Virus record (IMG/VR): IMGVR_UViG_2660237933_000001
Direction: 5' to 3' (one strand)
Length of the DNA: 34,728 bases
Origin: a virus
Taxonomy: Duplodnaviria; Heunggongvirae; Uroviricota; Caudoviricetes
The notes beneath the pieces were generated by a model. The model did no database searches, was not told where the DNA came from, and worked only from the letters and a program-made list of their open reading frames with translations. A program made the translations under genes and the position numbers. Of the stretch, positions 1 to 34,728 are shown piece by piece; the first letter of the stretch is position 1, and the number at the start of each line of letters is the position of its first letter.

Positions 1-483
1 ATGACGAAGAAAAAAGCACATAAACCTGGTTCAGCGACCATCGCGCTTAACAAGCGCGCCCGTCACGAATACTTTATCGAAGAAGAGTTCGAAGCGGGAC
101 TTGCCCTGCAAGGCTGGGAAGTTAAATCCCTGCGCGCAGGAAAAGCCAATATCAGCGACAGCTACGTCCTTCTGCGTGACGGAGAGGCATTTCTGTTTGG
201 CGCTAACATCACGCCAATGGCCGTGGCCTCCACGCATGTGGTGTGCGATCCTACCCGTACCCGCAAGTTACTTCTCAACCAGCGCGAACTGGACTCATTG
301 TACGGTCGCGTCAATCGAGAAGGCTATACCGTAGTGGCGCTCTCCCTGTACTGGAAAAATGCCTGGTGCAAAGTGAAAATCGGCGTCGCCAAAGGTAAGA
401 AACAGCACGATAAACGTTCAGATATCAAAGAGCGCGAATGGCAGGTGGATAAAGCACGTATCATGAAAAACGCCCACCGTTAA
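1..483 (+). CDS. smpB: SsrA-binding protein SmpB
   Basis: 160-aa ORF whose sequence ([30 protein letters not shown]...) I recognise as enterobacterial SmpB; located directly upstream of tmRNA as in E. coli. Confidence 0.95.
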
Positions 484-697: not shown

Positions 698-1060
698 GGG
701 GCTGATTCTGGATTCGACGGGATTTGCGAAACCCAAGGTGCATGCCGAGGGGCGGTTGGCCTCGTAAAAAGCCGCAAAAAATAGTCGCAAACGACGAAAA
801 CTACGCTTTAGCAGCTTAATAACCTGCTTAGAGCCCTCTCTCCCTAGCCTCCGCTCTTAGGACGGGGATCAAGAGAGGTCAAACCCAAAAGAGATCGCGT
901 GGAAGCCCTGCCTGGGGTTGAAGCGTTAAAACTTAATCAGGCTAGTTTGTTAGTGGCGTGTCCGTCCGCAGCTGGCAAGCGAATGTAAAGACTGACTAAG
1001 CATGTAGTACCGAGGATGTAGGAATTTCGGACGCGGGTTCAACTCCCGCCAGCTCCACCA
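698..1060 (+). ncRNA. ssrA: tmRNA (transfer-messenger RNA)
   Basis: Begins GGGGCTGATTCTGGATTCGACGGG, ends ...GGGTTCAACTCCCGCCAGCTCCACCA; internal tag reading frame GCAAACGACGAAAACTACGCTTTAGCAGCTTAA (ANDENYALAA-stop) at 787-819; length 363 nt. Confidence 0.95.
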
Positions 1061-1102: not shown

Positions 1103-1118
1103 TGGTAGTGGCGGCAAA

Positions 1119-1157
1119 ATGGCGACAGACTTTTGCGTCCATCTTGCCTGTCGCCAT
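1119..1157. promoter_or_regulatory. Candidate operator: 10-bp perfect inverted repeat ATGGCGACAG / CTGTCGCCAT
   Basis: Repeat arms at 1119-1128 and 1148-1157 separated by 19 bp, sitting 27-65 bp upstream of the ATG at 1184. Confidence 0.3.
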
Positions 1158-23792: not shown

Positions 23793-24131
23793 TTAACAAA
23801 CGGCGTATAAACCATCAAATCCAACGGAATGAACCTTTTTTGATGCTACTTCATTACTACGGCGTTGGATCACTTTTGCAATACTTTTTAAAATTGAAGG
23901 GGGTGCATTGCGAACCTTAACTTGACTCAAAACTTTGGTTACACCGAATTTCACTACCAAAACACCAAAGATTTCATCAGAGTATGATTCTGAAATTGAA
24001 TAAACACCGCTCAGATCTAAATCTACGGTATACCCTTCTTTAATGAACCCTTCAATCTTGTGTCGTTGGGGGATAGCCTGATTGCGCGAAGCCAGGTCAC
24101 CCTCGGGTAACTTGTATGCGATTTTGTTCAT
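23793..24131 (-). CDS. Hypothetical STAS-like (anti-sigma-factor-antagonist-like) small protein
   Basis: 112-aa ORF; strong AGGAGG RBS; start overlaps the upstream gene stop (TAATG). Motif DLDLSGVYSISESYSDEIFGVLVV resembles the SpoIIAA/RsbV-type phosphorylatable-serine region. AT-rich. Confidence 0.6.
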   Translation of the reverse strand: MNKIAYKLPEGDLASRNQAIPQRHKIEGFIKEGYTVDLDLSGVYSISESYSDEIFGVLVVKFGVTKVLSQVKVRNAPPSILKSIAKVIQRRSNEVASKKVHSVGFDGLYAVC

Positions 24132-25105
24132 TACTCTCCTCCTAACGCCCGCATTATTTCCATAAGCTGAGGGTCATTTTCTTCGCTATCTTTATCGACT
24201 GCCAGTTCATGAATCTTAAAACGGCAAGAAATTGCTACACCCGGCCATTCAGTACGTAATTCAGTATAGCTCACTTCATCACCTATTGCTTCTAAGCATA
24301 CATTTCCTGAAGCCAGTTGCAATTCCCCGTTATATGTTTTTATCAATTTCATCAAGTGATACAACCCAAGCCCTTGATGATTATTATCTTTTTCTTTGAC
24401 CGAAACCCCGTGGCCAAACACACTACCCCCAATAAAGTCCTGGGGAAGCTGCTGTGCCCAATCATCCTGCAAATCAGCATGCTTAGATGAATGTCCCTCT
24501 TGAATACACCATGCGATCGCATCCTGGTGAGTCTCAATTCCGGGTATACCAGCTCGCCGCAATTCTCGGAGAAATCCTAACCCACAGTCCGCCAAAGAAA
24601 ATTCTAAATAGTGCTCTTTTTTTTGAGTGTGGGGTACAGCCGAACGTTGTGCAAAAGAAAAACCCGTTGATTTTCCATGCGACCAAACGTTATCGTGAAG
24701 CTCACCTATAACATGGGTTAGATCTGTAAGTCCCTTGGGACAATCTCTCGGATCACGATCAGGGAATGTTAACTGCCTTACACAACTGTTAATACTACCA
24801 GTGGCAACGTCAACAGCTTCAACATTGGTTAATGCTGTAACCAAACTGTAATTTCTTCCAACATTTACACGTTCCTGTTGATACTGATCCTCTCCCCATA
24901 AAGCACCATGTAAATTGATAGCTCGCATATAGCCAGGGCATGACAAAACACAGTTATCTTCGGTAATTTTGTGATGATTCACGTAAGCTGCTAAGACAGT
25001 GATAAAACCAGGATGCCAATGATTGTTTGGCAATTGCAATTCATTAGTTTCCTTTTGATGAAACGCAGCGGTATGCACAATAGCGTCTTTTAATCCTAAC
25101 CCCAT
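24131..25105 (-). CDS. Hypothetical GHKL-family ATPase / serine-kinase-like protein
   Basis: 324-aa ORF. C-terminal half has an N-box-like ELHDNVWSHG (E, N+4, H+8, G+9 spacing as in SpoIIAB/RsbW), a G1-like DCGLG and a G2-like GLGLYHL; N-terminal ~125 aa unassigned. AT-rich. Confidence 0.6.
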   Translation of the reverse strand: MGLGLKDAIVHTAAFHQKETNELQLPNNHWHPGFITVLAAYVNHHKITEDNCVLSCPGYMRAINLHGALWGEDQYQQERVNVGRNYSLVTALTNVEAVDVATGSINSCVRQLTFPDRDPRDCPKGLTDLTHVIGELHDNVWSHGKSTGFSFAQRSAVPHTQKKEHYLEFSLADCGLGFLRELRRAGIPGIETHQDAIAWCIQEGHSSKHADLQDDWAQQLPQDFIGGSVFGHGVSVKEKDNNHQGLGLYHLMKLIKTYNGELQLASGNVCLEAIGDEVSYTELRTEWPGVAISCRFKIHELAVDKDSEENDPQLMEIMRALGGE

Positions 25106-31176: not shown

Positions 31177-31419
31177 TTACTTACCAACAATGACGCGGAA
31201 GTTGGAATGACCGAGGGATTCACGGACCTGATCGGTTTTGTACATTAAATAACGCAGGCTTACGCGGCCTTTGTTTTTTTCTTTCTTGACCATGTATTTA
31301 GCAAGCTGACCATGGTGAATTTTTTGATACACGGAGCCGCGGGAGATACCTTCCCATTCCGCGAACTCTGCAGGCGTAGCCATCTCTTTTGGTACACGAA
31401 TTGAAATATCAGTGCTCAT
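31177..31419 (-). CDS. apl: Apl/Cox-like excisionase-repressor (small HTH protein)
   Basis: 80-aa ORF, first gene of the early operon, divergent from cI; HTH-like segment ATPAEFAEWEGISRGSVYQKIHHGQL. Confidence 0.65.
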   Translation of the reverse strand: MSTDISIRVPKEMATPAEFAEWEGISRGSVYQKIHHGQLAKYMVKKEKNKGRVSLRYLMYKTDQVRESLGHSNFRVIVGK

Positions 31420-31477: not shown

Positions 31478-31521
31478 TCAATATTTGATACATCGAGATA
31501 CTACGATCCAATATTTGATAC
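31478..31521. promoter_or_regulatory. Switch-region operator candidates: direct repeats of AATATTTGATAC
   Basis: TCAATATTTGATAC at 31478-31491 and CCAATATTTGATAC at 31508-31521, 30 bp apart, in the 119-bp gap between divergent apl and cI. Confidence 0.4.
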
Positions 31522-31538
31522 GTCAACAGGATTAAAAA

Positions 31539-32171
31539 ATGATACAGGTAAAGGCTGGAGAGAATACAGGGGGAAGAGAAGCTATCCATAGACTAATGGC
31601 AGCCTATGATTTCAAGTCCAGACAGCAACTTTGCGATCACTTAGGCGCATCAAAAAGCACCATGGCAAACAGATACTTAAGAGATAGTTTTCCTGCAGAG
31701 TGGGTGATTCAGTGCGCCTTGGAAACAGGAGTTTCTTTACTGTGGCTAACCACCGGACAGGGGGAGCCAGGTCCAAACATTGAACCTAAAAAAAATATCA
31801 ATTCCGTGAACTCCAGCAAGGTTGTACCTCTTTCTGAACTAGTATCTCCTGAAATTGACAAGGCGACTCTCAACGGTGGTTTATTGGTCGATGCTGGAAA
31901 AGCAATCATTGATAGCAGCATACTCCCCTCAGACTCAAGCAACCTACTGCTGGTGACTACTTCTGGTGATTCTTATTTAATAGATCGCAACCAAACACCA
32001 CCAGTGAATGGTATGTGGTTAGTCGATATCGACGGGATAAAAAGCATTGTTAAATTGACTCGACTCCCGGGAAACAGATTAGTAGTGCATCAGGATGATT
32101 CATCGTTTGAGTGTGGCCTGGATGACATTGAGGTAGTAGGCCGTGCACTGAAAATCATTAAGAGCCTTTGA
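31539..32171 (+). CDS. cI: CI-like immunity repressor
   Basis: 210-aa ORF divergent from apl and directly upstream of int (1-nt gap), as in 186 cI-int. Confidence 0.7.
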   Translation: MIQVKAGENTGGREAIHRLMAAYDFKSRQQLCDHLGASKSTMANRYLRDSFPAEWVIQCALETGVSLLWLTTGQGEPGPNIEPKKNINSVNSSKVVPLSELVSPEIDKATLNGGLLVDAGKAIIDSSILPSDSSNLLLVTTSGDSYLIDRNQTPPVNGMWLVDIDGIKSIVKLTRLPGNRLVVHQDDSSFECGLDDIEVVGRALKIIKSL

Positions 32172-32172
32172 T

Positions 32173-33186
32173 ATGACCATCAGAAAACAGCCGAACGGAA
32201 AATGGTTGTGTGAGTGCTATCCCAATGGACGCAATGGCAAGCGCGTGCGTAAGCAATTTGCCACGAAAGGCGAAGCCATAGCATTCGAAAACTTCACCAT
32301 GGACGAAGTAAACAAAAAGCCATGGCTTGGTGAGAAGGAAGATCGGCGGCGATTATCAGAAGTGATTGAGCAGTGGTATTCCCTATATGGTCAAACACTC
32401 GCAGACCCCAAACGCCTGATGGCGAAACTTAGAATTATCTGTAATGGTCTAGGCGATCCCATCGCCTCTGAGCTGACAGCAGGTGATTTCACAAAATATC
32501 GGGAAGCCAGATTAAAGGGGGAGGTCCAAAATGAAGACGGCTCGTTCATGTCACCCGTTAAACCTCGCACAGTTAATCTTGAGCAGCGTAACCTGTCATC
32601 GGTGTTCGGTACATTGAAAAAACTAGGACACTGGTCCGCACCAAACCCGCTGGCAGGGCTTCCAACCTTCAAAATTGCTGAAGGTGAACTGGCTTTTCTT
32701 TCCACGGACGAAATCAAACGCCTGCTTAATGCCTGCGCCGAATCTCAAAACACCAGCCTACTAATGATTGCAAAAATATGCCTGGCTACTGGTGCGCGAT
32801 GGAGTGAAGCAGAAAACCTGCAGGGCCATCAGTTATCAAAATACCGGATCACCTATACCAAGACAAAAGGTAAGAAAAATCGTACCGTGCCGATATCTCA
32901 AAATCTGTATGACGAACTCCCCAAGAACAGAGGGAAGCTATTCACCCCGTGCAGAAAAGCCTTTGAACGAGCAGTAAAGCGAGCAGGCATCGAGCTACCA
33001 GAGGGCCAATGCACCCACGTGCTGCGTCATACATTCGCCAGTCATTTTATGATGAATGGCGGGAATATTCTGGTTCTGCGCGATATTCTTGGGCACTCAG
33101 ATATTAAAATGACAATGGTTTACGCTCATTTTGCCCCAGAACATCTTGAAGATGCTGTGACCAAAAATCCTCTGCACAATTTATAA
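32173..33186 (+). CDS. int: Tyrosine integrase
   Basis: 337-aa ORF; C-terminal HVLRHTFASHFMMNGGNILVLRDILGHSDIKMTMVYAHF contains the tyrosine-recombinase R/H-x-x-R...Y pattern. Confidence 0.9.
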   Translation: MTIRKQPNGKWLCECYPNGRNGKRVRKQFATKGEAIAFENFTMDEVNKKPWLGEKEDRRRLSEVIEQWYSLYGQTLADPKRLMAKLRIICNGLGDPIASELTAGDFTKYREARLKGEVQNEDGSFMSPVKPRTVNLEQRNLSSVFGTLKKLGHWSAPNPLAGLPTFKIAEGELAFLSTDEIKRLLNACAESQNTSLLMIAKICLATGARWSEAENLQGHQLSKYRITYTKTKGKKNRTVPISQNLYDELPKNRGKLFTPCRKAFERAVKRAGIELPEGQCTHVLRHTFASHFMMNGGNILVLRDILGHSDIKMTMVYAHFAPEHLEDAVTKNPLHNL

Positions 33187-33198
33187 TGGAGAATAATC

Positions 33199-34728
33199 GT
33201 GATTAAAAATATAGACATTCAATCAGATGCTGTTGCTAAATTGAGAATGGACTCTATTCGTTCAGAAATTCAAAGTTATAACCCCGAATTATTCATTGAA
33301 TTCTGCATGCAATATAATCTACAAAAATTTGATGATAATTTACACATGCTGCGTCATATGCCGTGGATAGTAAACTTATGTTTAAAATGGTCAGCATCTG
33401 TAATAGGCAAGAATAGAAAGTTCAAAACCCTTACAAAAAATCAAGCCATCAAGCTATTTCAAAAAGCCTATGAAACTTTAAGTATCATCCCCATTGGTCT
33501 TGAAAAGAAAAACGGAGTGCATTTTTTTCCAAGAAATAATTTATACCAGCAAGGTATTTATCAAAAAATTGACGCAATAAACTCCATTAGCAGACAGGTA
33601 TTTTTATTCTCACAACTCGAAAACACTCATAAAATAAAGACATCGTTTTTCAAGTTAACAAACATTTCAATTGATGATTTTTTAAAACTATCTTACATTT
33701 TAATATCACTAATAACAACGGAACATCCCGTCAGAAAAATAAATGTTAATAGTTTCAGTGTGTTATTCCCTATTTTACCCAAAGATACCGTAGAGAACTT
33801 TCTCGATGCAATCTCAATAAATTACAGTGAGCTATCAAAATTTTCAAAATCCAAGACATTTGAAAAGCCTTTGTTAGAATACTATTCATCTTCACCGTAC
33901 TTAGAAAATCCTTTAATCAAAAAAGGTTCTGATTATTTCCAGATACATGCACAACTAACATCAAGAAGCATACAAACATTTATATATGACCTTTTAAGAA
34001 GAACTGACGCTGAAAAATTCATGGACAGTTTTGGAACTGTATTCGAAAGAGCATTAGGAAAAATTATTCAAGAGAGTAATATTCCTGTTATCACAGAGGA
34101 TCATCTTAAAGAAAAGTTACCCAAAGATAATAAAGTAGTTGATTTTTTGTTTCCACACGCGAATGCAAATATATTCATTGATGCCAAGGGGGTTGAAATA
34201 CATCAAAAAGGCATGGTTACTTTACGGCCAGAGGATATTTCAGGAAAAATAAAAAAGTCTGTTTTAAAAGCTATCGAGCAAGCTCATGAAGTTAACAGAG
34301 AAATTTACTTAGACGATAAAGCAACAATAACCCCATTCAGGAAAGAATCTTTTGTGATATGCATTACATATAAAAACTTATTTTTAGGTAATGGTACATT
34401 CCTTGCCAGTACATATGCAGAAACTGAGATGCTAAAGATATATGATAAATTCAATACTGACTACCACATACCTAAAGAAAATATATTTTGCTTAGCTTTT
34501 GATGAATTTGAGTACCTTGTTGCATCCTGCAAAAATGCACATGTGCCTCCTCATATGGTTCTGCAATACGCAGTTGAAAAGAACAAAGAACCATCCAGTG
34601 CAGCCTTCCTTTTTTCCCAACATATAGAAAGCTATTTTGATAGAGTTATTAATTCTGATGTAGTAAATGAGATGGGAATAAAAATGGTTGACTCAGTTCT
34701 GGAAAAAATTTCCCAAAATGAAAACTAA
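33199..34728 (+). CDS. Hypothetical 509-aa protein, possible PD-(D/E)xK nuclease-like core
   Basis: Long uninterrupted ORF, strongly AT-rich and Lys/Asn/Ile-rich, starting 12 bp after int; contains VVDFLFPHANANIFIDAKG (D...hhh-D-x-K); no Walker A motif seen. Confidence 0.6.
   Translation: MIKNIDIQSDAVAKLRMDSIRSEIQSYNPELFIEFCMQYNLQKFDDNLHMLRHMPWIVNLCLKWSASVIGKNRKFKTLTKNQAIKLFQKAYETLSIIPIGLEKKNGVHFFPRNNLYQQGIYQKIDAINSISRQVFLFSQLENTHKIKTSFFKLTNISIDDFLKLSYILISLITTEHPVRKINVNSFSVLFPILPKDTVENFLDAISINYSELSKFSKSKTFEKPLLEYYSSSPYLENPLIKKGSDYFQIHAQLTSRSIQTFIYDLLRRTDAEKFMDSFGTVFERALGKIIQESNIPVITEDHLKEKLPKDNKVVDFLFPHANANIFIDAKGVEIHQKGMVTLRPEDISGKIKKSVLKAIEQAHEVNREIYLDDKATITPFRKESFVICITYKNLFLGNGTFLASTYAETEMLKIYDKFNTDYHIPKENIFCLAFDEFEYLVASCKNAHVPPHMVLQYAVEKNKEPSSAAFLFSQHIESYFDRVINSDVVNEMGIKMVDSVLEKISQNEN

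Follow-up and report, generated by a model that had tools for sequence, protein, structure and literature searches.

At the end of a 34,728-nucleotide stretch of viral DNA, in the following called the window, an AT-rich reading frame follows directly upon the gene of a tyrosine integrase (int). Its location raises the question whether it belongs to the prophage or to its neighbour, which protein it encodes, and what this protein does for its carrier. An earlier note, made from the letters alone, had proposed either cargo inserted between int and the attachment site or the first gene of an adjacent island, and had likened the product to single-gene nuclease or abortive-infection effectors. Judged by its sequence, the gene 3' of int is gapS1, which is already known, named and characterised; the locus reveals nothing new on GapS1 itself. 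What can be regarded as settled is the annotation of the window: it is a prophage whose copy of a validated defence gene looks functional. The features used in the argument are compiled in Table 1.

Table 1. Features of the window and its immediate surroundings (window numbering)
Feature	Position	Strand	Evidence or remark
smpB	1-483		upstream of ssrA
ssrA (tmRNA), integration target of the prophage	698..1060	+	ARAGORN; tag peptide ANDENYALAA
attL core, 45-bp 3' end of ssrA	1016..1060	+	single copy in the window
Candidate Int arm-type site AGTGGCGGCAnnnTGGCG, attL side	1107..1124	+	single match in the window
Apl/Cox-type gene	31177-31419
Promoter-like site at cI	31515-31543		consensus scan
186-type CI repressor gene (cI), opening the presumed lysogenic operon	31539..32171	+	Pfam Phage_CI_repr 5.5e-31, Phage_CI_C 9.2e-28
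Tyrosine integrase gene (int)	32173..33186	+	Pfam Int_N 1.6e-28, Phage_integrase 7.4e-25
GGAG Shine-Dalgarno sequence, 6 nt 5' of the GTG start of gapS1	33189..33192	+	direct sequence reading
gapS1, complete 509-aa GapS1-family anti-phage protein	33199..34728	+	NCBIfam NF047931 and identical NCBI protein
Internal ATG (Met17) of gapS1, possible alternative start	33247..33249	+	start of the published functional clone
Predicted PD-(D/E)xK nuclease core of gapS1, residues ~271-400	34009..34398	+	best-conserved segment
Predicted catalytic motif D315...D328-A-K330 of gapS1	34141..34188	+	conserved in homologues; equivalent to founder D313/K328
attR core, just outside the window	~34855-34899		exact copy at 7657-7701 of contig L002

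Reading frame and prophage boundaries

The frame opens with the GTG at 33199 and closes with a TAA that occupies the last bases of the window (34726-34728); hence, the gene is complete. The description of a frame running to the window edge is therefore correct as to its extent, but not in the sense of an open end. Because the int stop ends at 33186, the two genes are separated by exactly 12 bp, as had been noted before. At the base composition of gapS1, an open frame of 509 codons would occur by chance with a probability of about 8e-19, and the remaining five frames across the gene contain stop-free stretches of at most 66 codons. The GC content is 31.6% (GC3 27.6%), compared to 47.2% for int and 52.4% for the remainder of the prophage, which supports the view of a compositionally foreign gene.

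Two start codons have to be considered. We prefer the GTG at 33199 over the ATG at 33247, since it is preceded by the better Shine-Dalgarno sequence, residues 1-16 are conserved in homologues, and a predicted helix comprising residues 10-25 spans Met17. The NCBI protein that is identical to the product (509 aa) also begins at this GTG. The published clone WP_152927281.1 begins at Met17 and yet defends; thus, the first 16 residues are apparently non-essential.

The gene resides in a P2/186-type (Fels-2-like) prophage that has integrated at ssrA. The 45-bp end of ssrA occurs only once in the window (1016-1060), and consequently the attachment site does not lie between int and gapS1. The second copy was found on contig GCA_000785775.1 (L002), which matches the final 3000 bp of the window with 100% identity: an exact copy of the 45 bp is located 127 bp after the gapS1 stop and is followed by ypjA. 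This finding indicates that gapS1 is prophage cargo between int and attR, and that the prophage extends from about position 1061 to about 170 bp past the window end, comprises about 33.8 kb and has gapS1 as its last gene. Of the two placements suggested in the earlier note, which had advised searching for the ssrA repeat, the cargo position was thus the right one, and the first gene of a neighbouring island was rejected due to the attR beyond the gene. The same layout was observed in eight related prophages and phages. In addition, the sequence AGTGGCGGCAnnnTGGCG matches once in the window, where 0.01 matches are expected by chance, at a distance of 47 bp after attL; it also occurs once in L002 (7542-7559), where the gapS1 stop precedes it by 12 bp and the attR core follows at a distance of 98 bp. 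Its placement suggests that the two copies are probably Int arm-type binding sites, in which case the attP arm would lie directly after gapS1.

The prophage contains further regions of low GC content, which may be mentioned here. On the minus strand, a second cargo patch of lower GC content (23793-25105, 40-45% GC) lies between portal-like and replication genes, at the position of the P2 old/tin hotspot, and harbours an overlapping gene pair. The 324-aa protein of this pair gave no usable match to the Pfam, NCBIfam, and PADLOC profiles or to PDB sequences; its sequence, inspected by eye, points to a GHKL-type ATPase motif. In the 112-aa protein, Pfam recognises a STAS-like DUF4325 domain (3e-9), for which no defence literature was found. 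On the plus strand, just inside attL, ORFs of 160 and 143 aa occupy a patch with 42.7% GC (1184-2136); this is where phage 186 carries tum/orf97. The C-terminus of the 160-aa ORF is weakly similar to C-termini of LigA and DEDDh exonucleases and to PADLOC PDC-S48 (E ~1e-6), and the 143-aa ORF gave no matches.

Family membership and predicted nuclease core

The product of gapS1 matches the NCBIfam profile NF047931 ("antiphage GapS1") with an E-value of 1.9e-132 and 442.4 bits (cutoff 320), whereby residues 20-475 align with profile positions 1-455 of 455. An identical 509-aa protein is deposited in NCBI/UniRef as "GapS1 family protein [Escherichia coli]"; the cluster of this protein consists of 53 members on 82 contigs and includes members from Salmonella and Citrobacter. 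Typical of the family is a single protein of about 450-520 aa that lacks an NTPase and has its nuclease domain in the C-terminal part; with 509 residues, a nuclease core at about 271-400, no NTPase and no partner gene, the product possesses this architecture. The profile search recommended by the earlier note gave a match above the cutoff, and the notion of a single-gene effector of the nuclease or abortive-infection type agrees with the published family. The lack of an NTPase motif had been recognised correctly as well: a Walker A motif was not found in the protein, and Pfam signaled no NTPase domain and no significant domain at all, the sole hit being a TPD match far below the threshold.

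Searches in other collections were less informative. PADLOC-DB v2.0.0 (2023), which had also been recommended, gave no match to the product; probably, this library predates GAPS1, in which case the result does not speak against the GapS1 identity. DefenseFinder does detect GapS1. PHROGs returned phrog_14259, an uninformative family of "unknown function". Shedu (SduA, DUF4263), a further candidate of the earlier note, was rejected because the DUF4263/Shedu models were not matched. Searching the PDB sequences by means of phmmer and a 21-sequence profile gave nothing relevant; thus, a solved GapS1 structure was not found. WP_005477165.1, the founder of the family from Vibrio, was recovered neither by word-indexed homology searches nor by a genome scan. 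For the comparison of active sites, the respective region of the founder was rebuilt from the mutagenesis primers of Mahata et al.

The motif VVDFLFPH...IFIDAKG, which had drawn attention to the frame, is present in the product, with VVD at residues 313-315 and IDAKG at residues 327-331. The active site of the founder reads DNKIQGKVV-D313-FLHQRNGTSIFIDA-K328-GVEPNQKI and the one of the window protein DNKVV-D315-FLFPHANANIFIDA-K330-GVEIHQK. The spacing is the same, and both share the context KVV-D-FL...IFIDA-K-GVE, with D313 and K328 in the founder corresponding to D315 and K330. Residues D315 (codon 34141-34143), D328 (34180-34182), K330 (34186-34188), E283 (34045-34047), and Q361 are invariant in 21 homologues with identities down to 29%. 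The residues singled out beforehand, an aspartate and the DAK triplet, are thus the predicted catalytic ones. Conservation also holds among 22 distant relatives, which originate from Colwellia, anammox bacteria, Desulfobacterales, Nitrosomonas, Planctomycetota, Chloroflexi, Collimonas, and others: all 22 retain D315, and 21 retain (D/E)-x-K. The only locus of these without (D/E)-x-K, in the genome of an uncultured Verrucomicrobiales (L025, match 1023-2416), has retained D315; it may be a decayed copy, contain a frameshift, or be affected by an alignment artefact.

An AlphaFold2 model built on the alignment reached a pLDDT of 87.5 and a pTM of 0.87. In this model, E283 is located in a helix (271-293), D315 at the start of a strand (316-319), D328-x-K330 in a second strand (324-330), and Q361 in a further helix (349-371). 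As modeled, this layout is the canonical PD-(D/E)xK arrangement, and the C-terminal half of GapS1 is predicted to adopt a restriction-endonuclease fold. The structure search advocated in the earlier note thus led to a nuclease-like predicted fold. Conservation is highest in the nuclease core and lowest in the first 100 and the last 60 residues, a pattern which would fit a conserved effector combined with a variable recognition surface.

Function and the variable slot behind the integrase

The definition of the GAPS1 family goes back to Mahata et al. (bioRxiv 10.1101/2023.03.28.534373), who reported that GAPS1 of a Gamma-Mobile-Trio (GMT) island of Vibrio parahaemolyticus guards E. coli against several coliphages. 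The exchanges D313A and K328A in the predicted PD-(D/E)xK site of the founder abolished defence; T7 escapers mapped to the capsid gene 10, and co-expression of the founder with gp10 led to dormancy, not to death. According to the same study, three E. coli homologues were protective when cloned, growth arrest was shown in E. coli ZH142-A, and one native homologue was needed for protection in a clinical isolate. Carriage of GAPS1 by temperate phages has been reported previously.

Two of the tested genes can be linked to the window. The visible 380 nt of the cloned insert encoding WP_152927281.1 correspond to positions 33247-33626 with 379 of 380 nt being identical; the single difference, C33530T, replaces Pro111 by leucine (P111L). 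Within the visible sequence, gapS1 of the window is therefore one of the alleles that were shown to defend E. coli. An accession search of the supplements of Mahata et al. identified WP_152927281 as the sole accession of the window protein's cluster. The other gene is P0064, which a cluster look-up identified as the tested E. coli homologue EJP5250929.1; its product and the window protein agree in 57% of residues over 506 aa. We are therefore highly confident that the gene is a known single-protein anti-phage defence of the GapS1 family, carried as AT-rich "moron" cargo between int and att. It probably confers on the lysogen resistance against a number of coliphages, which bears on phage-host range and on phage therapy.

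How the gene would be expressed can be deduced from its surroundings. The genes cI, int, and gapS1 follow each other on one strand with gaps of 1 bp and 12 bp, and a consensus scan of the plus strand between the cI promoter region and gapS1 detected neither a promoter-like nor a terminator-like site. In the simplest reading of this spacing and the scan, the three genes form one lysogenic operon, and transcription of gapS1 would start, together with that of cI and int, at the lysogenic promoter. The protein would then be made in lysogens and protect host and prophage from superinfecting phages. The family literature suggests that the trigger would be a major capsid protein, which is T7 gp10 in the case of the Vibrio founder, that defence would require the nuclease motif, and that the infected cell would enter growth arrest or dormancy rather than lyse, so that the spread of the phage would be stopped. 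The variable N-terminal and C-terminal helical parts may form the sensing surface and might hold back the FokI-like cleavage domain as long as no trigger is bound. Note that a phage which builds capsids itself carries a presumably capsid-sensing nuclease here; the placement in the cI-int operon could be the reason why this is tolerated, as its expression would then depend on lysogeny and cease upon induction.

A nuclease at this position might also serve purposes other than defence. It could be an orphan restriction or nicking endonuclease similar to type IIS enzymes that cleaves DNA at a particular sequence, with the DNA of host or prophage being protected by methylation, e.g. by the adenine methylase of the prophage. 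We consider this very improbable: neither phmmer nor the profile search linked the sequence to a restriction enzyme of the PDB, and the methylase is located about 4 kb away and is a conserved backbone gene that is also present where the slot behind int is empty or filled otherwise. Moreover, GapS1 homologues need no partner to defend when expressed from a plasmid, and the escape mutations affect the capsid gene and not DNA sites. A type IIS restriction-modification system was rejected, as the neighbours of gapS1 are int and the att arm and no cognate methyltransferase is adjacent. A toxin or addiction module, which would stabilise the prophage by killing cells that lose it, is suggested by the combination of a nuclease fold with a mobile element and an AT-rich, apparently horizontally acquired gene. 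However, there is no antitoxin ORF, gapS1 being flanked by int and the att arm, and in some otherwise similar prophages the slot is empty. Among the systems of Mahata et al. (bioRxiv 10.1101/2023.03.28.534373) only GAPS3, GAPS5, and GAPS8 were reported to be toxic on expression, whereas E. coli expressing GAPS1 or its E. coli homologues was protected in plaque assays. Addiction is thus highly unlikely.

The location directly 3' of int, beside the att arm and probably within the same operon, would also suit an accessory nuclease that cooperates with Int at attP during integration or excision. However, unrelated proteins or nothing at all are found in the slot of prophages with int genes that are 81-96% identical and with the same att core. 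GapS1 also occurs on GMT islands, on a Klebsiella plasmid, and in diverse non-enteric genomes, and the prophage already has an Apl/Cox-type gene. Therefore, we regard this role as extremely unlikely and retain anti-phage defence as the probable function of gapS1.

The exchange of cargo in the slot deserves a closer look. With int included in the query, 15 complete E. coli genomes and 12 Klebsiella phage records were found to contain the int-gapS1 pair with a nucleotide identity of about 80%; in the E. coli genomes, the annotation by PGAP is mostly "gapS1". This allele was reached only by the query that includes int; with gapS1 as the sole query, megablast matched none of 5,426 complete E. coli genomes. 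The Klebsiella records, namely OK490395.1 and its 11 siblings (phage Kp48xx), are unannotated and contain int-gapS1 at 161-2679, which leaves about 160 bp to the end of the record; possibly, these are the phages mentioned as "GAPS1 + Lamassu-Fam (n=12)" in a 2026 INPHARED preprint.

In order to survey the slot, a sample of E. coli and Salmonella prophages and phages with an int of 81-96% nucleotide identity was compiled (L001, L003, L004, L027-L033). Its occupants comprise three GapS1 alleles of 509, 506, and 508 aa, which are mutually 57-78% identical; a 352-aa family (WP_001748162.1, WP_059320302.1) with a truncated relative of 128 aa; a family of 401-418 aa (WP_069914412.1, WP_001244285.1 of E. 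coli S88, ADQ92376.1 of Salmonella phage RE-2010); and a 222-aa protein (WP_001083625.1). In PEC148, the slot is empty. Every occupant begins between -4 and +14 bp from the int stop and has a GC content of 30-35%, compared to 45-48% for int. In 8 of 10 loci checked, the ssrA att core lies about 85-135 bp past the cargo gene, or 118 bp past int if the slot is empty. For the occupants other than GapS1, Pfam, NCBIfam, and PADLOC gave no match above threshold, and PDB sequence searches provided nothing usable. We propose tentatively, and with more doubt than conviction, that the int-attP slot of ssrA-integrating Peduoviridae of the Fels-2/186 type is a defence hotspot; the three unrelated families could then be new single-gene anti-phage proteins. 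This swapping of cargo between int and att yields a short list of unannotated proteins as candidates for defence and is the only lead of this locus with some discovery value.

Comparison with known systems

The principle of a fixed locus in temperate phages that takes up interchangeable AT-rich defence cargo is the one known from P2- and P4-like hotspots. Rousset et al. 2022 (PMC9122126) describe the psu-int hotspot in P4-like satellites and the cI-int hotspot in Vibrio K139-like phages; in those passages of their paper that mention an integrase, the int-attP slot is not among the hotspots. With respect to function, Upx (PDB 9wuf) is an analogue, as it is likewise a single-protein PD-(D/E)xK defence nuclease, but it does not belong to the GapS1 family. 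It comprises 1212 aa and two nuclease domains with a regulatory middle domain between them, whereas GapS1 has 509 aa and one core; the Foldseek TM-score is 0.34 and sequence identity 11-13%. Moreover, Upx senses terminase/gp16 and not the capsid. The solved folds closest to the modeled GapS1 core are the type IIS cleavage domains of FokI and N.BspD6I, with a D...D-x-K active site; there is, however, no sequence similarity to these enzymes, and GapS1 has no cognate methyltransferase.

Within the family, the founder WP_005477165.1 from the GMT island VPaI-6 belongs to the same NCBIfam family as the window protein and shares the single-protein architecture as well as the motif KVVDFL...IFIDAKGVE including its spacing. 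Nevertheless, its identity to the E. coli homologues amounts to no more than about 24-29%, and the capsid trigger and dormancy were shown for the founder; its carrier is a Gamma-Mobile-Trio island, whereas gapS1 of the window resides in a P2/186-type prophage. More closely related is the allele of EJP5250929.1 and of the BEN5202 prophage, which occupies the same slot after int in the same prophage lineage. With 57% identity over 506 aa it is divergent, mostly in the first 100 residues and in the tail at the C-terminus, so that its phage range may differ. The closest counterpart is WP_152927281.1 (Mahata et al., Fig. 6a), which is essentially the same gene and, cloned alone, protected E. coli against diverse coliphages. 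The clone differs from the gene described here by its start at Met17, by a leucine in place of the proline at position 111, and by its location on an arabinose-controlled plasmid instead of in a prophage.
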